From NCBI GenBank assembly GCA_965233585.1, contig CBDDTI010000592.1:1-15622 (forward strand): a stretch of 15,622 nt of DNA, read 5' to 3'. The stretch comes from a bacterium (GTDB taxonomy: Bacteria > SAR324 > NAC60-12). This document shows, piece after piece, positions 1-15,450 of this stretch (positions within the stretch are counted from its first letter, which is position 1; each line of letters begins with the position of its first letter). The notes below the pieces were generated by a model that did not search any database, was not told where the DNA came from, and saw nothing but the letters and a program-made list of their open reading frames with translations. Made by a program: the position numbers and the translations under genes.

Positions 1-367
1 CCACGTTGTAAGCTCTTTTTTGCAATAATTTGAGCTAAAATAGGGACGATAATGCTGGCAATTGCCGATAAAGTTCCTAAAATTCCGCCCCTTTGTAGTA
101 TTGTTCTTTTTTTGAAATGTCGGAAGAGCGACGAGGCGGCGTGGCAAGACGTCTGAACTCCCCTAAATGAGCTCTAATTTTTTTCTGAAGTCGTGTTCGC
201 ACTTCGCCATGTAAGGGCAATTCGCCGTTCAAAACGTAACGTAAAATACGACAAAGCAATTCAACGCCGCGATCGTCCAAATAATTTAAAAAATTAGCGC
301 AATCTTTATGTTTTAATTTTTTTATTGCATTAAAAAGCGAATTAGCTTTTTCTAATTTTTTTGACAT
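1..367 (-). CDS. Small Polinton basic/amphipathic virion-type protein with QxGG motif, broken by a frameshift at the A7 run (113-107); runs off the window
   Basis: ORF 77..367 reads LLCRILRYVLNGELPL...RLQKK...RRLA, the Polinton 'NiL.GnvpL...L.k....lR.La' pattern. The -1 frame after the A7 run continues KKRTILQRGGILGTLSAIASIIVPILAQIIAKKSLQR with no stop. Confidence 0.7.
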
Positions 368-413
368 TTTAACAGTAATTATTTTTAATTTTTCTTAAAT
401 AGATATGAAATTT

Positions 414-1109
414 TTAAACAGTAACGTAGGCTTTCATTAATCCTTCATAAGGAAAGATGTTACTTCGAATTCTGACTTTATCGTCTTGCTGTTGATGAAA
501 ATCTAGAAGAAGATATCCGTGACTTCGACCGTTAACTGCTTCTCTATACGCTTTATTTAAGATTCCAACACGACCGGGAAAAATTTGTTTTGCCAAATGT
601 GTGACGGCGCTTCTGTCTCGCGGATTGTTAAAAAGGATCATGTATTGCGTATTTATGCTTAATGTCCGTAAATCGCCTTTTTTGTAAAATAAATTTTGAC
701 AAAGAAAAATGGTGAAACAATTGTAATGATGGGTCAAAACCGTAAAAAAATGTTTTAATATTTGCCCAACATCGTCTAAATAATCGTCAAAAACAATCAA
801 TTTGGGCATTTTTCTCGGATATAATTCTAAAATATCTTTCAACTCTTCAATTGAATTTGGAATATTTTTGAATTTACGAAAAGACGGAAATTGTGTGTCA
901 GAACCTCTGCCCTCATTCATGTCGTCTTCCATGTACTGATATGCTTTTTGCGGTTCCTTGTAAAACAACAACATTGTTTCAGGCGGAGTTGCAAAATATT
1001 CGTGCCGACGAAGCACTAAATGTTTTAGCCACGTTGTTTTTCCGCTTGATGTTGGACCGACAACCAACATGTTGGACGGAATATTAAACCTCAAATCAAA
1101 ACCTTTCAT
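414..1109 (-). CDS. A32/FtsK-HerA-like DNA packaging ATPase (231 aa)
   Basis: Walker A GPTSSGKT, Walker B LIVFDD, plus THHYN...LCQNLF...RTLSINTQYMILFNNPRD and HGYLLLD motifs typical of Polinton ATPases. Confidence 0.93.
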   Translation of the reverse strand: MKGFDLRFNIPSNMLVVGPTSSGKTTWLKHLVLRRHEYFATPPETMLLFYKEPQKAYQYMEDDMNEGRGSDTQFPSFRKFKNIPNSIEELKDILELYPRKMPKLIVFDDYLDDVGQILKHFFTVLTHHYNCFTIFLCQNLFYKKGDLRTLSINTQYMILFNNPRDRSAVTHLAKQIFPGRVGILNKAYREAVNGRSHGYLLLDFHQQQDDKVRIRSNIFPYEGLMKAYVTV

Positions 1110-1175
1110 TTTATTAATTTTAAAAAAGAAATTACAAAATTTTCTTTTAAATAAAAGTAATGATTTAATTATTTT

Positions 1176-4100
1176 TTATTTACAAATTTGACATTTAGAC
1201 ATTTTGTTGTTAACAATAAGACAATTTCCTAGCGATAAAGTGTGACATCCGCAATTTAAAACATATCTTTTGGAATCCATTGCCGACAACGCAATTATTC
1301 TTTGAAAACACGTCCGGATTTTGTGATTCTTTGATCTTAAATTTTTAAAAGATTTGTAAATTACAACAGTTTGCTTTAAGCACTTTTTGTAATCTGCATA
1401 AGTTAATTGCTTTTTTATACTAGATTTTTTTAAACCTTTGCATACTTTTTTCTCATCAGTTTTGTTTTTGTCCAAAAAATCAGCTATTTTCATAGAATAA
1501 CATTTTGGACGTAAGCCTATAAAATCAGTAATAGCCGCTCTACCTTTTAATTCGTCTTTGAAATAAAAAAGTTGATTGGCTTTACTGTCGTCAAAAAGTG
1601 GATGTTGTTTAGGGTACTTTGAAAAATCAAACATGTGTTTCAATCTCTCCATTTCCCTTTCCAAATTGTTGCATTTAACTTTTAAAAGAAAAGAATCCGT
1701 GTCCGAAAAACACAAAGATACATTGTCTTTGCCGAAATGTTTTTGAATGGTGTCATAGTATGATCTGTACATAAACAACTTGGACAACTCTAGAATGGAA
1801 AATCCGACGGCTAAAGGCTTTCTAAGTTCTATCATTGCCGGCTTCTTGTTGACAGCCACCAAATTCTCATTAATGATTTGAAAATTGTTGATGTGTTGAC
1901 CAAGACTGGCTTTTCTCAGACTTTTTTCATCTCCACAAAGGACCACTTCGATGTAATTTCGAACATTTTCTGAAAAATATAAAATTAAATAAATATTTTA
2001 TAAAGAATACAACATTTTTTATAAAAATTCATTATAAAGTGTGTAGGAGTTTGGAGATTTATTTTTTAAAAACTTCCTAAAACCATGTGGCAATTTTCAA
2101 AACAAACTTTCACAGGAAGAAGAGGAGGAGGAAGAAGAAAGGGAAAAATGATGATGATGGAGATGAGGAGGGGGTACAGGAGGTTAAGGGAGGAGGATGG
2201 AGAGCCGCTTTTGGCGGTGGAGGAGGTGGAGGAGGAGAAGAAGAAGAACCGGAGACCGGGCCTGATCCGGCGGATCCGGTCGGCCGTGGCCGACATTTTT
2301 GATGCTCCGCCGTCCGCTGCCGCCTCCGCCACCGCCAGCGCCGCTGCCGTTGCACTCTCTGTTAGCGTTGCTGTGCTCGCCGCCAACGGTGCTGGCGGCG
2401 GCGGAGGCGGCAGCGGTCGCGCTGTCCGAGGCCTTCAAAACGAAAATTTTATTGCGCCCGACGTCCCCACCGGCATTCTTGTTGACCTCCCCACCAACAA
2501 CATCTGAGGTCCAACGTCCCCACCGAGGTGCCCACCGAGGTCCCCACCGAGTCCCCCATCGAGGTGCTCATCGAGGCCCCCACCGAGTCCCCCATCGAGA
2601 TGCTCATCGAGGCCCCCACCGAGTCCCCCATCGAGATGCTCATCGAGGCCCCCATCGAAGTCCCCACCGCTGAAATTTCCTCCAATGTCCCCACCGATGT
2701 GCTCATTGAGGTCCCCGTCCCCATCGAGGTGCCCACCGAGACCCCCACCGAGTTCCCCACCGAGGCGTTTGTCGAATTCCCCATCGAAATCCCCACTGAC
2801 GACCCCATCGAGGCTCCCATCCCCTTTAGACTCCCCGCCGACGACAGATCTTTTGCCGTTAGACGTCGGGCGACGGAGATTGTCCGCCTGGCCAGAATCC
2901 GGGCAGCGGCAAACCGGATGGCCGATTTCGACGGCGAGGTCATCACTGTGGAGGCCGAGGTCCACGCGCCTCCCGATGACATTGAAGATGCGGATGAGCG
3001 TGTGGTGTGTACTGCCAACACATTTTGCACTAAATATTGGCAGTACCACCACACGCTTGTGCAAATATAAAAATACAAAAAAGATCCTAAATCTGGGTAT
3101 TTACTTACCGATAAACTTTCCAAAAGTAGAGTTGGCAAAAAGCTTAAAAAGCCGAAGTTCAAAATCGTTGCGAGCGTTTGATCGTAGCATCGTGACCTTT
3201 TCAATAAACTCCTTCAAAAAAGCTTTTTGCCGAAACTTTACGGCTCTTCTTATCCTCAACAGCTTCATGCCTTTTTTCAAGTAGTATTGTAGATTTTCCA
3301 GATGCACCACGTACTTTTTTCGATCATAAAAAGTGCTCAACAGTTTCTTGCTTCGGTATCTTTTGTTCTTATAATCTCGAGGGTTGAGATGTTTTAGTAA
3401 ACGGCGATTATAAGGAGACAGATGTTTGTAAGAAACCGTGTCTGTATACGGAGCCAGCGGAAATTGATCATGTGTCTGTAAATATTTTACCGTTTATCAA
3501 AATGCAAAAAACGTGTTAAAAAGATCAGATTTACCGGGTGAAGATGAGAAGGATAATGCAAATCAACTTCGAATGCGTACCCGGTCTCGTCTTGAGAAGG
3601 AATCTTGATAATATCTTTGGCAGTCCATTTTTCAAGATCTTTTTTTGCAACCCACTCGAAATCAGAAACTGGCAATTTTAAAGTTTCCATGCTCCCGTAC
3701 AAGTTGTTTGCTAAAAAGTCACCGATTTTAAATAAATAGATTAATCAAACGATGCAGTATAAAATTACCGTCAATGTAAAGTAAATGATCGCCGCTTTTT
3801 CTCGGATTGCTGTTTCCTTTTGCATAACGCTGAGAGATAAAGCTTTGTCCGCCTCTGATACCCTTTGTAAAAAACTGCTCCATTTCAGGATCGGAATAGA
3901 TATCCAGAGATCCTGGAGGTTTGGAAGATTCACCCGCGAGGTTATCTTTTGTTGTTGTAGCTCGTTCAGAGTTTTGATAAAACATAAGCATAACATCAAA
4001 ACTTAGTCCAGGAATTCCTAAAATTATACGAAATAAATTTTATATTCAAACTTTATATGTCAAGCAACAGAAAAAGAAATTCACCTAAGTAATAGATTGG

Positions 4101-5897
4101 ATCCAATTGAAAGTGTTCCATAACCATTTTCCTGTATTGAAGAAATGCTTCACATAGCAGGATGACATCCAAAGAACAATAAAGCATCATGTAATCCGCC
4201 ACATTCTTGCACTTGAACAGTTTGAAGACTTCTTGCGCATGAGAATAATCCGTTTCCGAGATGTGTTCTTCATTCAATTCGGAATAAAAAGCATCTTTGG
4301 TTGGGAGGTTTCGACTTTTTTTCATTTCTTGTAATGATTGAAAATGCTCGTAACAAAAAATGCCTTTTCTTTTTAAAAGTTTAAAAGCTTTTGATTTTTG
4401 ACGGATAGGAATTTTTTGAAATCTTTTCATCTGTTGTAAAATAGGGAAAGAAAAGTTTGAAGTTTGATTCAAATCTTGGACAAGAGCGTCTAAGCTGGCA
4501 GATATGTGCTCTAATGAATCTTGGATTTTAAATTTGCCCAATGTAAGAGTGCGAAACTTTTCACTGTTTCTAGCCAAGACTTCCGGCATTTTCTTAAATC
4601 GGCGAATGTTTAACTCTTCTATGATTAAATGCAAATCGTATCTGAAACATTCAATTTGTTAAAAAATTAATTAAAAAATAAAGTTAATAAAAAATTTTTA
4701 CCCTTGAGCGTTGTGGAAAAAAATTGGCGTGTGATAGGGTCCGGATCTTGTCAAATTACACAGCGAATGAGCCGCACCCATTATTTTTCCTGTGACATGA
4801 TCGTGATCCAAAACTTTTCTATACTTTTTAGGATGGGTAGCAAATCGAAGACCGCATATATGACAAACGGTTGCTTTTCGAAACATTTGCCATTCCTCAT
4901 GGGTGGCTTGAGTTTTGAGAACATCTCTGAATTTTTGTTTTCTTTCTTCAACCACTTTTTCGTAGAGAGGTATCCGATCCAAAAAACGTTTGGCCGCATC
5001 CTCTCCTAAATATTCTTCTTGAAAGAATACTTCATTTTCGGAGTCCACAAAAATCAGGCTGTAGCCTACCGGTCTATGCACATTTATATCGTCACTTGTG
5101 GGAAAAGCACACAAGCATTCCAATTTAGAACAAAGTCGACATTTAGATCGTTCCTTGTTTCTTTGAAGTACACTTTCAAAATCACAAAATCCCACAACAG
5201 GTGCTTTAAACTTATGTTTGTGGTTAGAAAAACTTATAGCGGCATTTTTACCGGGATAAATGGTGCGTTGCTTATCGTAGCAAATTTGCTCATGCTTTTC
5301 TTTCTTGAATTTTGATCGGAAACGCAGCAGACATTTTTCACAGTGGATGTACTTCTGTTGACCCGCTTTGTTAATCGACAACAGTCCGGCCCGATTATTC
5401 AAAAAACCTTGGAGTTTTGTAATTTTAAAGAAATGATGCTGTTGATTTAAATCTTTGATTTTTTTAGGAAACTTGGAAGGAAAACTCGATTTTTTGGGGC
5501 GGGAATTACTCGAAGTTTTATCGGAAGAGATTTTAGGATCGTGTTTTATCATTAACAAATGGAGAGTATTTTCTCTTATATCGTTGTTTTTGTTAGTAAT
5601 AAACCCTAAATTTGAAACGTGACCTTCACTCTCATAAAGTACGGAAATTGAAATTGGTAAATGACGATTTCTACACAAAAATTTTTTTATGTCACAAAAT
5701 TGAAGAGGAAACGTAAAACCTTTTATGTTAAATTTTTTAAGATATTTTATTGGCATTTGACGAAAATCTGTAATGGAAGCAGTTTCTGGAAAAAGATGTC
5801 TAATGTACAGATAAAGAAAGTTGAATTTATCATATCGAGTATTCCATTCCAAGCAGTTAGATCTTTTTATATCTCGTGTAATTTCTATAAAATCCAT
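1176..5897 (-). CDS. polB: Protein-primed DNA polymerase B, 6 exons: 5897-4702, 4641-4085, 4017-3769, 3710-3535, 3475-3109, 1969-1176 (3339 nt, 1112 aa)
   Basis: ExoI CDFES and motif C FSDTDSF lie within exons. Splice junctions rebuild FHNAQGYDLHLII (ExoII), DPIYYLGIPGLSFD, YIDANNLYG (motif A), YPSHLHPTHDQFPLAP and KLFANSTFGKFIENVR (motif B). LRPKCYS and KVCKG are present. All introns are GT-AG and in phase. The start codon is the least certain part. Confidence 0.93.
2085..3070 (+). CDS. Nested antisense gene (ORFs 2085-2507 and 2528-3070, probably one frameshifted gene): acidic/basic N-terminal part, Ala-rich hydrophobic stretch, E-x-P-T/I repeats
   Basis: TATAAAAA at 2020-2027 and AAAACC-ATG at 2085. 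Visibly GC-rich compared with its flanks. The tail of the first ORF (DVPTGILVDLPT) resembles the repeats of the second (NVPTDVLIEVP). Confidence 0.5.
2513..2820 (+). repeat. 12-nt periodic coding repeat, including three near-identical 36-nt units (about 2542-2649)
   Basis: CCCCACCGAGTCCCCCATCGAGRTGCTCATCGAGGC x3, built from GAGnnnCCCAYC-like subunits. Confidence 0.9.
3476..3534 (-). other. pPolB intron 4 (59 nt, phase 0)
   Basis: GTAAAT...TTTACAG; joins HLHP to THDQFPLAP. Confidence 0.88.
3711..3768 (-). other. pPolB intron 3 (58 nt, phase 1)
   Basis: GTAATT...TTTTTAG; restores YID-A-NNLYG. Confidence 0.9.
4018..4084 (-). other. pPolB intron 2 (67 nt, phase 1)
   Basis: GTGAAT...ATTTTAG; restores YYL-G-IPGLSFD. 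Confidence 0.88.
4642..4701 (-). other. pPolB intron 1 (60 nt, phase 2)
   Basis: GTAAAA...GTTTCAG; restores HNAQ-G-YDLH. Confidence 0.9.
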
Positions 5898-5946
5898 TTC
5901 CAAAGCTTACTTGAATTTTTATATACAACAAAATAAGTCCTTAAAA

Positions 5947-6708
5947 TCAAATATTGGTAATTTGGATGTCGCTAAAAGACAGAGATTCGAATCTCCATCC
6001 GGAACCTCTCATCAACAAATCCTCTTCTCGAGTTATTAAATTGTTTAATAATTTTTGAACTTTACCTTTTAACGAGCGAGAAGAATCAAAAGACGTGAAT
6101 TGAATATAGCCGGTTCTTAAAGCAAAGACATCTCGATCGCTAGGCATTAATTCATGTGACGACTGATCAAAACTTTTTTCAGTTGAATCATCAATGTTGC
6201 TAACAACCGTTTGAGGCTGTGATGAAGTATTATCAACAACAGCTTCCGTCTCAGTGTCTTTGTCTTTTGTAGCTGAATTCAAATCAGGAATCTGATACGC
6301 CGCTGATAAAATTAAAGCAACTTTTACTGTAAAGGTTTTACTTAATTCATGACGAATAACATCAACAATTTCTTGTCTATTTGTTCTATTAACAACAAAG
6401 GCGTGAAGCGTTTCTGTAGAAAATATATGTTTCCGAAAAATTTTGATTTTACCGTTTAAAGCAGATTTAAAAAGAGAGTAATTTAAGTCTTCTAAATGAG
6501 AGGAATCGATGTGAGAGACCAAATCATTTCTTGATTTAAAGGAACTTAATTCATTCTTACAAAACGGACACTGAAGCGATTGATTTAATGGAGTCCGATT
6601 TCGGAATTTTGACGATGTTTCACGATGACGAAACAATTCATGTTTGTCTCGGGAAGATTTTCTAGTAAACGATTTTTGGCATTCGCGGCAGACGTAGGAT
6701 TTTGGCAT
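5947..6708 (-). CDS. Stand-alone terminal-protein-like ORF with two C2H2 zinc fingers and GSGW motif (253 aa)
   Basis: YVCRECQKSFTRKSSRDKHELFRH and LQCPFC...LVSHIDSSH fingers. SALNGKIKIFR, KVALILSAAY and LMRGSGWRFESL match the region normally found at the N-terminus of Polinton pPolB. Confidence 0.8.
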   Translation of the reverse strand: MPKSYVCRECQKSFTRKSSRDKHELFRHRETSSKFRNRTPLNQSLQCPFCKNELSSFKSRNDLVSHIDSSHLEDLNYSLFKSALNGKIKIFRKHIFSTETLHAFVVNRTNRQEIVDVIRHELSKTFTVKVALILSAAYQIPDLNSATKDKDTETEAVVDNTSSQPQTVVSNIDDSTEKSFDQSSHELMPSDRDVFALRTGYIQFTSFDSSRSLKGKVQKLLNNLITREEDLLMRGSGWRFESLSFSDIQITNI

Positions 6709-6808
6709 TTCTGTTAAAATTCTGAAACAAAATTTATTGACGCGTGAAATTTGGAAATAATATATACAAACACATTAAAACTATATAGCTCAGACTAATT
6801 AATACAAA

Positions 6809-7636
6809 TCATTCTTGTCTAAAATGACGCAACAATCTTTGATATTGAGCACGTAAGCGTTCGCGTTCACGCTCAAGCGTTTGAATGCGTTGACGCAATA
6901 CGTACTCAGCATAACGATTGAACAAATCATAAGGTGAGCCTCCTTCTACATCAATTAAATCAAGAATGAAAGAGGCTAAACGACCGTCACTCGATCTTTC
7001 TAAATTTGAGGGTGCGGGGAAATAATTTTCCTCTTCTATTTCTTCTTCTGCTGATCGAGTTGGACGTTGATAAGGAGAAGAATATCTTCCAGCCCTACCA
7101 ACACCGCGTCTGACCTCTCGTCCAATCGAGGCTGAAGTCGTTTGATTGAAGGGGCGAGAAATATTTTGACCCCGACCAACGCCACGACCAGCGACCGAAG
7201 TACTCGAGGTGTTGCGCTCAGCAAAAATTCTTTGAGACATGGGGTTCGATGTTGAATCATCGACAGCGTTGTTTGATGATGGCGATGTTAATTCATCGGC
7301 GGAGTTATTGGTCGATGTTAAATCATCGGCTAAATTGTTATTGATCCGAACCATAATTCCAAATCCTTCGGGGTTTACAACTATCGGTTCAGATACTCGA
7401 CCCCGTTGATTAAACGAGGAAGATGTTGTCTGGCCCCGACCAACACCACGAGCGGTTAGAGAAGTTGGGCCATCATTTGACCTCAAATCTCCTCGACCTC
7501 GTCCAATCGGCACAACCGGTGGAGATGGCGGTGATGTTAAATCATCAGCGTTTCTTAGATGAAATCTTATTCTTAACCCGGCAGGGCCAAGAAAAACTTG
7601 GCGAGGGTTGTTTGAGTCATTTGGTGAATTAGACAT
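6809..7636 (-). CDS. Hypothetical disordered RG-rich protein with a C-terminal coiled coil (275 aa)
   Basis: Long ORF with AAAATG start downstream of a TATA/Inr promoter. RGVGR x3 and AD(D/E)LTS x3; tail LRQRIQTLERERERLRAQYQRLL; AATAAA at 6738-6733. Confidence 0.75.
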   Translation of the reverse strand: MSNSPNDSNNPRQVFLGPAGLRIRFHLRNADDLTSPPSPPVVPIGRGRGDLRSNDGPTSLTARGVGRGQTTSSSFNQRGRVSEPIVVNPEGFGIMVRINNNLADDLTSTNNSADELTSPSSNNAVDDSTSNPMSQRIFAERNTSSTSVAGRGVGRGQNISRPFNQTTSASIGREVRRGVGRAGRYSSPYQRPTRSAEEEIEEENYFPAPSNLERSSDGRLASFILDLIDVEGGSPYDLFNRYAEYVLRQRIQTLERERERLRAQYQRLLRHFRQE

Positions 7637-7699
7637 TTTAATTACCTTTGGCAGCGAATGGCAGAAGATCTTCTTTCAACGAATGTTCAAACTTATAAT

Positions 7700-8395: not shown

Positions 8396-9610
<1,215 letters not shown>

Positions 9611-9714: not shown

Positions 9715-10741
9715 TTATACGGGAGTAGACAAATTTAGCCTGGCAGAAAGAGAAGGGTCAACGGCTGTTGAAGAATCCGTCGCAGGTTCCGTCCGAGGTA
9801 TGTTGAATAACGGAGGAATCATGCTCGAAAAGTACGGCCGTCTATGATAAACCTGAAAAATAATTTATATATAATAAGCGATTTAAAAATAATAATAAAT
9901 TTCTTACCGTATACTCCGTGTTGGTTGCTTTATCTACTTTTTCGGGAATTGGCAAAAAAGTAGTTGCATCGGACGGCAACGCCGATGCGGTTGACTCTAA
10001 CGGCAAAATTTCAACACTCGATTCTTCCACAACCTCGTCGTTTGTCGATGGATCCGCAGCAGCCTCTATTTGAATCATTTCAATAGGCTAAAAAAAAAAA
10101 TAAAGTAGACAAAATATTTTATAAAATGCAATAATCATACTTCGACGTTAGACGGGTCTTGGTGGTGATGGCTCAGTCTTCTTAATTTATACATTATTAT
10201 GGCGAACGTTACAAAAATGAAGACGAACACAGTTCCAACAAATATTTTGAAGACATCTGAAAATAATAAGGCATTTGTATTAAAATGTTGACTTGTAAGA
10301 AAATAATCAATACTTACTGTCAAAGGTTGCGGAGTCGAAACCCGCGAAGGAAAAAATACTATGTATTGTTGATACATTAGGCGAAGCGGAAAAGACCGGT
10401 GGATTAGAAGTGGTGGCAGAACCGGTGCTTGTTTCCAACACAGGCGCGGGTGAAGTGACAATCGTGGTTGAGAGAGTAGAGCTTGTCAAAGTGGTAGCAA
10501 CGGTAGTGGGCGGGACGGTGGTAGTGCTGGTAGAAGTCGTGGTACTTGAAGTGGAAGAAGCCGTTGTGGTGGTTGGAGCAAAGTCAGTTGTTGGCACGAT
10601 GGTTGTTTCAGAAGAAGAATTGGAAGATGCAACAATTTTGGCGAGGAGATTTTTTAGTAGAGTGATGTCTTCCTCGCATGAAATTTTTTGTGCCAAATAA
10701 AAGGCCCAAATGGCGAAGACGATGATGATGTTAAAGTTCAT
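9715..10741 (-). CDS. Type I membrane mucin-like glycoprotein; 4 exons: 10741-10318, 10256-10141, 10087-9908, 9852-9715 (285 aa)
   Basis: Signal peptide MNFNIIIVFAIWAFYLAQKISC, a Thr/Ser/Pro-rich ectodomain, and TM segment IFVGTVFVFIFVTFAIIMY followed by KLRR. Introns 10317-10257, 10140-10088 and 9907-9853 are all GT-AG and in phase. Confidence 0.82.
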
Positions 10742-11053
10742 TATGGCGGAATTGGAAATTTACTTTAAAGTTTGAAATGTCCAAAAATTGAAAATGAAGT
10801 GAAGTTTTTAAATCGCAAACTTGAAATTATTTATTTTCTATAATAAAGCGGGCGGTCAAACACGCGAACATATGTACATTTATTATAAATAAAGTTAGAA
10901 GTTTATGTCAAAATTAAATAAAAAAGCACTTTTTTATACAATAAAATGCTTTGAAAAGATTCTTTATGAAGAAAACTTCGCAAAGGGAGGGTTGAGCGAA
11001 ATTTACGCAAAGGAACGAGAAAACTCACGCTGAGAAAGTAAAACACACCGCGC

Positions 11054-12013: not shown

Positions 12014-12506
12014 ACGGAAATTTAAACATTGTCGTTCTCAGAACCTTTCTTCGCGCCCCCGAACTGATTCAAGACGTGGAAAGTGGAAAAAATTGAGATT
12101 GCAAACGGCTTGCAACAGGCTCAATCGAGCCTGTAATCGGCTTGCAACAGGCCGATTGCAGACGAAAACAAGCCGATTACAGGCTCGATTGAGCCTGTTG
12201 CAAGCCGATTGCAGACGAAAACAAGCCGATTGCAGGCTCGATTGAGCCTGTTGCAAGCCGATTGCAGACGAAAACAAGCCGATTACAGGCTCGATTGAGG
12301 TTGTTGCAAGCCGATTGCAGACGAAAACAAGCCGATTGCAGGCTCGATTGAGGTTGTTGCAAGCCGATTGCAGACGAAAACAAGCCGGTTGCAGACGATT
12401 ACAAGCCGATTTCAGGTTGAAACAACCTTAATGTAGATGCCATCAAGGTGATTTTAGAGCGTAACAAGCTCGAATGAGAGTGATGTAGGGACATTACTCC
12501 ACAACA
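12014..12506. repeat. Palindrome-rich repeat, copy A, including four tandem 53-nt units (12169-12380)
   Basis: Unit CAAGCCGATTRCAGGCTCGATTGAG(CC/GT)TGTTGCAAGCCGATTGCAGACGAAAA, with an inverted partial unit at about 12110-12144. Flanks are shared with copy B. Confidence 0.9.
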
Positions 12507-14763: not shown

Positions 14764-15004
14764 AATTTGCGCAAGTTGGACCGAATGTTACGTTCAGAGG
14801 GAAATTTGCGCAAGTTGGACCGAATGAAAAGTTTTACATTTGAGCGGGTTTGGAACTAAAAGACGGAATTTTAAACAATTTCCGTTCCCAGAACCTTTCT
14901 TTGGGAATTTGCGCAAATTGGACCGAATGAAAAGTTTTACATTTGAGCGGGTTTGGAGCGAAAAGACGGAATTTTTAAACAATTCCCATTCCCAGAACCT
15001 TTCT
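14764..15004. repeat. ~103-nt tandem duplication plus one extra partial copy
   Basis: AATTTGCGCAARTTGGACCGAATG at 14764, 14803 and 14906. The last two continue nearly identically to CAGAACCTTTCTT. Confidence 0.88.
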
Positions 15005-15450
15005 TCGCGCCCCGGAACTGAAAACGAACTTGCAATGGCAAAAAATAGATGTTGCAACAAGCCTGCAACTGGCTTTTTTTCGTCTGCAACCGGCTTGCTT
15101 TCGTCTGCAATCGGCTTGCAACAGGCCGATTACAGGCTCAATCGAGCCTGTTGCAAGCCGATTGCAGACGAAAACAAGCCGGTTGCAGGCCGATTACAGG
15201 CTCGATCGAGCCTGTTGCAAGCCGATTGCAGACGAAGACAAGTCGGTTACAGGCTCGATCGAGCCTGCAACAGGCTCAATGTAGATGCCATCAAGATGGT
15301 TTGAGAGCTCTTCACGATGGTTTTCATGCGTAAACGGGGGGGTTGAAAGCCCGTTTCAGCCTGTTTTAAGGTGTTTTGAGAACGTTTTGAGAAGAAATGT
15401 GCCTACATCGGGCTCGAAAGAGCCTGATGTAGGTACATATCTCTACAACA
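14966..15450. repeat. Palindrome-rich repeat, copy B (direct orientation relative to copy A)
   Basis: Shares CAGAACCTTTCTTCGCGCCCC, the CAAGCCGATTGCAGACGAA units, AATGTAGATGCCATCAAG and TGATGTAGG.ACAT with 12014-12506. Confidence 0.88.

Follow-up and report, generated by a model that had tools for sequence, protein, structure and literature searches.

A probable fast-evolving accessory gene with conserved palindromes, nested antisense in a polymerase intron of a Maverick/Polinton-like element

What fills the one long intron of a DNA polymerase gene whose other introns are about 60 nucleotides (nt) long, and is it a gene in its own right? The locus that raises this question lies in a complete 15.6-kb contig (C592, GenBank CBDDTI010000592.1; all 15,622 nt of it are referred to here as the window) of a 12-Mb assembly that is registered as prokaryotic. 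The window is eukaryotic in style, being AT-rich with genes split by GT-AG introns of about 60 nt, and its minus strand, which in the list of open reading frames (ORFs) carries every long ORF from 77 to 7675, encodes the polymerase. The answer that we favour, and hold as a whole with reasonable though far from complete confidence, is that the window derives from a Maverick/Polinton-like element of about 20 kb belonging to a eukaryote, and that polymerase intron 5 contains a real, fast-evolving accessory gene on the opposite strand, encoding a largely disordered protein and carrying conserved palindromes within its coding sequence. Contigs of such elements are binned here together with a bacterial genome.

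The host gene and the intron in question are as follows, where pN/pS is the ratio of the proportions of nonsynonymous and synonymous differences:

1176-5897, minus strand: protein-primed DNA polymerase gene, six exons.
3109-3475, minus strand: polymerase exon 5, ending in KLFANSTFGKFI; amino-acid identity 98-100% across the 11 subfamily A copies described below; pN/pS 0.018.
1970-3108, minus strand: polymerase intron 5, 1139 nt, with GT at 3108-3107 and AG at 1971-1970 as read from the sequence.
1176-1969, minus strand: polymerase exon 6, the last exon, containing the motif DTDS and the stop codon at 1176-1178; pN/pS 0.065.

Exon 5 closes with ...KLFANSTFGKFI, a region that we take to be motif B, and is followed by GTAAGT from 3108; the polymerase resumes in phase at 1969, after TTTTTCAG, as (E)NVRNYIEVVLCGDEKS. 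The intron-less relative P0027 (1195 amino acids, aa) is colinear with the window, its residues 839-949 matching 3478-3116 and its residues 952-1192 matching 1970-1224. Because this alignment has no gap at the protein level but skips in DNA coordinates straight from 3116 to 1970, the intron is placed at 1970-3108 and measures 1139 nt, exactly as a preliminary description of this DNA had reconstructed it. That description set it against ten other introns of 53-67 nt; the five that we examined, four in the polymerase (4642-4701, 60 nt; 4018-4084, 67 nt; 3711-3768, 58 nt; 3476-3534, 59 nt) and one of 65 nt at 8610-8674 in the neighbouring plus-strand gene, agree at 58-67 nt, the remaining five falling outside this count. 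The sharp contrast in base composition that it reported is likewise evident, with a GC content of 0.61-0.67 in 300-nt segments across 2101-3000 vs 0.30 at 1801-2100 and 0.37 at 3001-3300.

Related elements in the same assembly show what this intron looks like elsewhere. Using tblastn with exons 5 and 6 we recovered 45 paired polymerase loci, which fall into four subfamilies by amino-acid identity to the exons of the window:

Subfamily A: 11 copies, 97.7-100% identity, exon gap of about 1.1-1.35 kb, one plus-strand gene.
Subfamily B (B-type): 14 copies, about 90% identity, exon gap of 0.9-2.3 kb, typically two plus-strand genes.
Subfamily C: 14 copies, 62-73% identity, gap of about 60-80 nt with GC content 0.22-0.28, empty intron.
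Subfamily D: 6 copies, 31-50% identity, no intron at the site.

The supposition that related elements might hold this intron either short and empty or filled is thus borne out (14 short and empty, 25 filled, six with none). Splice-site dinucleotides are conserved in A, B and C, and a quick maximum-likelihood tree places D outside, C in one clade with 100% support, and A and B close together; these sequence relationships allow, without proving, a single gain of the insert. It is kept in all 25 A and B copies, whose polymerases have diverged up to a synonymous divergence (dS) of 0.3-0.5, and all 26 matches of a profile of the nested gene's C-terminus in the assembly lie within A or B introns. 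The B-type introns carry two genes:

B1, plus strand: 396-425 aa, GAWSS-type repeats, open in 9 copies.
B2, plus strand: 149-169 aa, with 166 aa in variant C224; reading frame open in 11/14 copies.

B2 is a homologue of the A gene, with which it has in common an N-terminal M..RRG.Y..L followed by an acidic run, an LI..IR.A.A helix, a short-unit repeat (DVIPA in B2) and a C-terminal ...CVV...T[YF]C.....YHH.LV. Starting near 2048, the leaders of A and B2 share 82% identity, although at the DNA level their coding sequences can hardly be aligned. B1 has no 3' palindrome of the kind described below; one example (G000:C523:23128-24315, plus strand) encodes 396 aa of GAWSSTKTGG-type repeats rich in Ser, Gly and Trp, with GC contents of 0.74 and 0.40 at second and third codon positions (GC2 and GC3).

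In the window, the nested unit takes up 87% of the intron and lies 115 nt and 38 nt from the splice sites. Its parts are:

1997-2147, plus strand: upstream region and leader, including ATG 2085, delimited by conservation.
2085-3070, plus strand: nested unit from the ORF list, with ATG at 2085, a Met run at 2148-2159 and TAA at 3068-3070.
2085-2507, plus strand: 5' ORF piece of the window copy, ending in TGA 2505-2507.
2500-2509, plus strand: frame break of the window copy relative to read-through copies, located from the alignment of the 11 A copies and from ORF lists.
2486-3070, plus strand: 3' ORF piece, in a second frame, ending in TAA 3068-3070.
2516-2765, plus strand: tandem repeats of 12, 24 and 36 nt (2516-2669 and 2717-2765) encoding E-x-P-T/I units.
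2819-2992, plus strand: non-repetitive C-terminal coding part, 58 codons, with the predicted helix RRRATEIVRLA.IRAAANRM.

The start of the insert is well conserved: 1997-2107 is 97% identical to copy C670, and over the first 117 columns of the intron the A copies show 88-100% identity; a search for a leader motif common to other genes of the element found only the leader's match to itself. In five other A copies the main ORF is not in frame with ATG 2085, and the starts of B2 genes coincide with the Met run, which is therefore the likelier start. The 5' piece continues from it through a basic/acidic N-terminus and an Ala/Val hydrophobic stretch to a Gly run. Five of the 11 A copies are cleanly open (306-380 aa), one is open with out-of-frame inner segments, and five are broken, including the window copy, which can therefore yield a truncated product at best. 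A plus-strand intron bridging the break in the window was considered and rejected: no plausible GT..AG precedes the stop and intact copies need none, the nested gene having no introns of its own. Repeat number varies in nearly every copy of the alignment, and the frame breaks lie mostly within or beside repeats in what is a short-read assembly of a multi-copy family; some of them may be artefacts.

Long ORFs come cheaply in GC-rich DNA (ORFs of 120-254 aa occur in five of the six frames of this intron), and for this reason the evidence for a real gene was taken from substitution patterns; TATA-like strings, for their part, are expected in AT-rich flanks. Across the C-terminal 83 codons of the 11 A copies, pN/pS is 0.18 in the ORF frame vs 1.5-3.7 in four other frames and 0.28 in the antisense frame that shares its third positions, these ratios being descriptive and carrying no probability, as the pairs compared share ancestry. 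Variable columns in the same codons are distributed over codon positions 1/2/3 as 13/9/32 (p=0.0002). With the 25 codons of a 3' hairpin (see below) set aside, the remaining 58 codons at 2819-2992 still give a pN/pS of 0.20 and a distribution of 11/8/28 (p=0.0006), and the C-terminus is stop-free in 11/11 A copies. The N- and C-terminal parts of B2 give 0.35-0.36 in frame vs 0.72-0.99 in shifted frames. Judged by these patterns, the non-repetitive C-terminus is under purifying selection in the ORF frame.

The nested gene nevertheless changes far faster than its host gene. Among A copies, polymerase exons 5 and 6 show a nonsynonymous divergence (dN) of 0.002-0.006, dS of 0.09-0.11 and pN/pS of 0.02-0.07, vs a dN of 0.036 (C-terminus) to 0.108 (N-terminus) in the nested gene, with dS of 0.23 and 0.17, respectively; the protein evolves about 7-20 times faster than the polymerase. 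Between the B-type copies C224 and C523, dN is 0.65 for B2 and 0.015-0.033 for the polymerase. GC3 of the nested gene is 0.71-0.74, vs 0.27-0.41 elsewhere among the element's genes. How closely a single copy matches the window copy also shifts abruptly along its length, for example from 100% identity in the upstream flank to 86% in the N-terminal coding part, which fits recombination between elements.

These results allow most of what the preliminary description said of the insert to be judged. Its acidic/basic tract, Ala/Val stretch, repeats and C-terminus are all present on the plus strand, but not as one continuous unit, because in the window copy they occupy two frames separated by the break at 2500-2509. 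A conserved plus-strand gene, with in-frame purifying selection at its C-terminus, is present in other copies, and the proposal that the polymerase pays nothing at the protein level agrees with the intact state of the polymerase in 11/11 A copies (all six exons, 1114 codons) and with its low pN/pS. Its term cargo gene suits the position of the gene; a foreign origin, which the term also implies, finds no support, all 26 matches being intronic and no homologue outside the element lineage having appeared in our protein, profile, viral-contig or genome-contig searches. Finally, the non-repetitive C-terminus that it singled out is indeed a conserved coding part, but ends in a conserved palindrome that it overlooked.

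The relatives that were found point in the same direction. A search of 5.8 billion proteins returned seven near relatives, two of them without public source and apparently from this assembly; the other 18 matches are weak, spanning from roughly a quarter to less than half of the query, and 13 of them are Pfam PT-repeat proteins. A profile of the C-terminus run against 1.84 billion representatives gave 16 matches, 14 of which are family members (three already seen in the protein search and 11 further small members of 86-185 aa); the other two, Cys-rich repeat proteins, are doubtful and were taken as spurious. The N- and C-terminal motifs are common to A, B2 and the metagenome proteins of 86-185 aa, and in one of the 11 further members, P0036, B1-like repeats are joined to a C-terminal half of the B2 type. 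From these sequence comparisons, the nested gene would belong to an orphan family of the element lineage and does not look like a recent capture from a host.

Two palindromes lie within the coding sequence:

2311-2419: palindrome 1, in which an Ala-run arm (2311-2349) pairs with a Gly-run arm (2381-2419).
2997-3057: palindrome 2, the 3' hairpin, 61 nt, its stem of 14+10 bp closing a loop of 18 nt, encoding ERVVCTANTFCTKYWQYHHTL.

Palindrome 2 ends 10 nt upstream of the stop codon; its folding energy is -43.2 kcal/mol (z -7.75) for the plus strand and -41.4 kcal/mol (z -6.3) for the minus strand, with none of 200 shuffles as stable. B2 genes have the same hairpin in the same place with partly different sequence (about -50 kcal/mol). 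When 10 A and 8 B copies are aligned, giving 13 distinct rows, pairing is seen in 98.5% of 260 cells, compared with 18-49% when the partner is slid by 1-3 columns, and 4 of 20 pairs are changed on both sides between A and B, although most compensatory changes lie on this single A/B split and thus represent few independent events. In metagenome relatives, the residues found at mirrored positions of the motif are V and H, A and R, or T and C, pairs that, inferring codons from the protein sequences, can be encoded by reverse-complement codons such as GTG/CAC, GCG/CGC and ACA/TGT. Palindrome 1, whose loop encodes the hydrophobic stretch, folds at -86.6 kcal/mol (plus strand, z -7.2) and -91.7 kcal/mol (minus strand, z -9.3) and is conserved in 11/11 A copies, once through a compensatory change that entails Gly-to-Ser replacements; B2 has an analogous Gly/Ala palindrome. 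As to strand, the 3' hairpin has 28 G.U vs 2 C.A cells when read on the plus strand, and for palindrome 1 the minus strand gives the more stable fold in nine of the 11 copies. That the conserved C-terminal motif is encoded by a palindrome whose pairing is conserved is a new observation here, and on the evidence of the alignments nucleic-acid pairing has, at least in part, shaped the apparent Cys/His motif as well as the Ala and Gly runs.

Such pairing raises the alternative, unlikely in our estimate but deserving full discussion, that nucleic-acid structure is the selected object and the ORF secondary, the two palindromes being the payload. They could serve as small-RNA hairpin precursors, as splicing aids for an intron 20 times the usual length, or as cruciforms in recombination or replication. 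The stability of both folds, the near-complete pairing with two-sided changes in what is the best-conserved stretch of the whole family, the presence of palindrome 1 in every A copy with its counterpart in B2, and the mirrored residue pairs all speak for this, as does the specificity of the 3' hairpin: a general rule that genes of the element end in hairpins was tried and rejected, the ATPase (z -1.5) and the polymerase (z +0.6) having none, and only the last 35 codons of an RGG-repeat gene at 6809-7675 forming a fairly strong one (-29.5 kcal/mol, z -4.8). There is also a weak likeness to miRNA precursors in Rfam, at scores of 20-36 bits (the best 36.1 vs 110) that fall far below the gathering scores of 77-268. 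The coding signal, however, persists in the 58 codons outside the hairpin and in the N-terminus of B2 (0.36), and distant relatives keep the start, the stop and the N-terminal motifs. No pairing was found between the two ends of the intron, so that the insert is not looped out for splicing, and the concentration of compensatory changes on one split counts further against this alternative, as does the ability of template-switch correction of quasi-palindromes to produce such changes without selection.

The reading of the insert as a protein-coding accessory gene must in turn be weighed against what is known of the protein. Neither ORF piece scored above threshold in Pfam, the nearest family being the PT repeat (PF04886) at 17.8 bits vs a cut-off of 26.2; the intact copy as query gave no usable match in the ESM Atlas, and the B2-type family alignment (A3), run as a profile against the PDB, gave 0 matches at E-values up to 10. 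AlphaFold models from 15-row alignments have a predicted local distance difference test score (pLDDT) of 47 for the A type and 52 for the B2 type, too low for a fold search. Helices are predicted at 2-36, 60-72, 76-100 and 265-289 in the A-type model, and one helix with a weak, low-confidence C-terminal beta-hairpin in the B2 model; the protein is, by these models, mostly disordered. The best 19-residue Kyte-Doolittle mean in the A helix at 76-100 is 1.99-2.12, above the usual membrane threshold of about 1.6, vs only 1.1-1.4 in B2. A zinc-knuckle reading of the C-terminus is possible but unproven: B2-type proteins keep C-x8-C-x2-C-x3-H (15/15), A-type proteins have only C-x5-C-x6-H-H, and the same residues are palindrome-encoded.

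Several points therefore tell against the accessory gene. It has no fold and no family, with nothing usable from Pfam, PDB profile or ESM Atlas searches. Only 5/11 A copies are cleanly open, so that the gene is either dispensable, slippage-prone or mis-assembled in its repeats. The N-terminal 98 codons are weakly constrained (pN/pS 0.65; 24/24/33, p=0.37), and the ratios on which we draw are descriptive, as noted. The best-conserved protein motif is a palindrome, such that the apparent protein conservation may partly be nucleic-acid constraint; the hydrophobic helix is missing in B2 and coincides with the loop of palindrome 1, and may not be a membrane anchor. Moreover, none of the runs listed with the locus is on record as RNA, and we infer promoter, transcript ends and polymerase splicing from the DNA, the antisense regulation of the polymerase proposed in the preliminary description being likewise conjectural; assembled contigs from the sequencing runs contain no intron-skipping joints, though contigs cannot reveal transcripts.

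A further possibility, to which we give only an outside chance, is that this polymerase intron is a slot for exchangeable accessory genes, grown from about 60-80 nt, in which leader and palindrome bound a cassette and the palindromes are functional signals, for recombination or boundary definition or as small RNAs, that control the element or its host. If true, it would be a eukaryotic, intron-borne counterpart of a gene-cassette system placed inside an indispensable gene. A slim chance attaches to the idea that a gene taken from the host or from a foreign source happened to come to lie in the intron, which would make it cargo as that term is applied to nematode Mavericks. Its GC3 is unlike that of the rest of the element, high GC with low conservation marks nematode Maverick cargo (bioRxiv 10.1101/2022.07.12.499685), and the unrelated B1 in the same intron together with the P0036 fusion suggests modular exchange. 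What argues against capture is the confinement of all 26 matches to these introns, the intron-less structure of the gene and the lack of any homologue outside the lineage in the searches above; that a host copy is missing is weak evidence, the host genome not being in the searched set.

We consider it very improbable that the insert is neutral and decaying, whether a GC-rich minisatellite or a dead gene with chance ORFs. The five broken A copies, the low complexity, the abundance of ORFs in other frames and the weak N-terminal constraint are what one would expect of such an insert; frame-specific purifying selection, retention in 25/25 copies, the conserved leader and a C-terminus free of stops in every A copy are not. 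An independent transposon within the intron was also rejected, as the insert ends have no inverted repeat and no copy lies outside polymerase introns in the assembly. An assembly chimera or contaminant joined to the polymerase, as the sharp composition change and the mis-binned metagenome assembly might suggest, is scarcely credible, since the assembly contains 12 occurrences of this insert, 74-91% identical and all in this intron, contigs from two studies cross both borders (position 1970 by the independent-run contigs X1, 1942-2109, and X2, 1956-2108, with zero mismatches; 3108 by X5, from a second study, 2605-3186), and near relatives of the nested gene are present in other public assemblies.

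If the insert is an accessory gene, as we favour, the following picture would emerge. Intron 5 would have expanded about 20-fold and would now house an opposite-strand protein-coding gene, probably transcribed from its own promoter and convergent with polymerase transcription. Its product would be a mostly disordered accessory protein with a basic N-terminus bearing an R-x-Y-x-x-L motif, an acidic cluster, an amphipathic helix, a hydrophobic helix (in subfamily A, a possible membrane anchor), a variable acidic Pro/Thr repeat and a short C-terminal helix. Because of its fast change and the variability of its repeat, the protein would more plausibly face the host, or sit on a particle or membrane, than act as an enzyme. 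The 3' palindrome may act in cis on the nested transcript or on the DNA, for example by setting or protecting the transcript end, a first guess prompted by the mere 38 nt between the stop codon and polymerase exon 5. The position in the intron would tie the gene to an indispensable polymerase gene at no cost to the polymerase protein.

Identification of the element rests on the genes that surround the intron and on sister copies:

414-1175, minus strand: A32-type ATPase (poxvirus A32 type), from a Pfam match below threshold and from ESM Atlas clusters.
Within 77-7675, minus strand: a zinc-finger protein and an RGG-repeat protein.

The polymerase is colinear with P0027 and P0028 in tblastn, and the precomputed Pfam domain of P0028 is PF03175, which places it in the protein-primed family B; single polymerase exons scored against no Pfam polymerase family. 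A search with the polymerase N-terminus for longer proteins gave three matches, and in metagenomes exon 6 matched a single locus, 38% identical. Exon 1 (4701-5906, minus strand) matches the endonuclease VII family (PF02945, E 1.8e-5, 25 bits vs a cut-off of 23.6) and also holds C2H2-like zinc-finger strings. The ATPase matches Pfam Pox_A32 at E 0.0022 and 18 bits, under the cut-off of 22.8, and its nearest ESM Atlas clusters carry Pox_A32 at a score of 0.98-0.99; one of these is labelled 'Eukaryota, commonest Nematoda' from three records, which is too weak and was not used. An rve integrase with a chromodomain is found outside the window, in a sister copy (L009:4668-5753, contig C328; E 4.8e-9, above the cut-off), and an integrase search returned 782 relatives. 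Two further ORFs of L009, of 581 and 522 aa, have no Pfam match, no structure search for capsid or protease having been made.

Mutually inverted, palindrome-rich arrays of 53-nt units, which also contain 21-, 32- and 64-nt units, lie at 12014-12468 and 14989-15450, with local folds down to -62 and -71 kcal/mol. Similar 53-nt arrays flank 20-kb units in C328 and other contigs; they are probably the terminal repeats of the element, and the 3 kb between the arrays of the window looks like an internally deleted neighbouring element. Elements also occur in clusters on single contigs: two A copies 20.2 kb apart in C328, two B copies 23.6 kb apart with one C copy in C212, and diverged elements head to tail or close together in C288, C224, C705 and C581, which suggests tandem or nested insertions. 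In total, about 60 contigs of the nominally bacterial assembly are Maverick DNA, with at least four polymerase subfamilies.

Some further genes deserve mention. A TATA-binding-protein domain (PF00352, E 5e-19) is encoded in the full-length sister element beside a protein with a TFIIB zinc ribbon (PF08271, E 7e-7, 29.1 bits vs a cut-off of 29), the two genes lying at L009:6983-7597 and 6168-6959 (minus strand; about 19.5-21.0 kb in C328), a pair missing from the truncated element copy of the window; a Maverick-like element may thus supply its own basal transcription factors. In the window, a three-exon gene at 9842-10759 (minus strand) encodes a hydrophobic N-terminus (MNFNIIIVFAIWAFYLA), a long Thr/Ser-rich stretch, a hydrophobic segment (FVGTVFVFIFVTFAIIMY) and a basic tail, and from this layout its product looks like a type I membrane protein, which would be a second mucin-like protein of the element. 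The gene at 6809-7675 (minus strand, GC content 0.46) has GRGVGRGQ-type, RGG-like repeats, and a short-intron gene at 8396-9610 (plus strand) specifies a protein with a Lys-rich N-terminus and an extended acidic tract of Asp, Glu and Ser, within which an (ATG)13 repeat at 8835-8874 yields an Asp run. Elsewhere in the assembly, actin-family fragments with TAG inside most matches occur on two small contigs (C64:1536-2691 and C577:473-6299) and could be pseudogenes, exon pieces or a clue to host gene structure; two uninterrupted actin-family matches on large contigs are presumably bacterial actin-like (MreB-type) genes.

Mavericks/Polintons link transposons with DNA viruses and are known to carry extra genes between species. 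Extra genes kept in a polymerase intron would be inseparable from the replication gene and leave the polymerase protein undisturbed, and the series from no intron through a short empty intron to one gene and two genes offers a model for intron growth in mobile elements, for the origin and settling of orphan genes, and for the splicing of a 1-2 kb intron where about 60 nt is the norm. The locus also carries a more general caution, in that the conservation seen in a protein motif can reflect a structure of the nucleic acid instead.

Set beside known systems, the repeat of the nested gene resembles Pfam PT repeat (PF04886) and mucin-like proteins in its acidic, Pro/Thr-rich tandem units and its predicted disorder, a likeness of composition only, and its hairpins resemble miRNA precursors (Rfam MIR7526, MIR862 and others) in having stems of 22-30 bp and loops of 12-20 nt, here placed inside coding sequence. 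In adenovirus, a distant Polinton relative, polymerase and terminal-protein messages are spliced, with long introns that overlap opposite-strand genes or leaders; these belong to the large transcription units of a free virus, and homology to adenovirus proteins was neither found nor sought here.

No description of a gene inside a Maverick polymerase intron was found among the listed titles and abstracts of the open-access literature. A survey of nematode Polinton polymerases (PMC10748475) speaks of introns in another sense only, and the words nested, antisense and cargo are absent from it. Nematode Maverick cargo genes are described as high in GC, poorly conserved and located between the left terminal repeat and the integrase, core genes being intron-less and cargo genes having introns and recognisable folds such as protease and kinase (Widen et al., bioRxiv 10.1101/2022.07.12.499685). 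The nested gene is like this cargo in its high GC, poor conservation, variation between similar elements and signs of modular recombination; it is unlike it in lying antisense in a polymerase intron (26/26), in being intron-less and in having no recognisable fold. A further parallel is with opposite-strand nested intronic genes of cellular genomes, for example in C. elegans (PMC12274878), which have their own start and stop inside an intron of the host gene. Our gene likewise lies wholly inside one intron (2085-3070 within 1970-3108) and is under coding constraint of its own; it differs in that its host is the replication gene of a mobile element, in that the same intron measures about 60-80 nt in relatives, and in that it fills so much of the intron that, with the short distances left to the splice sites, the two transcripts must overlap or end very tightly.

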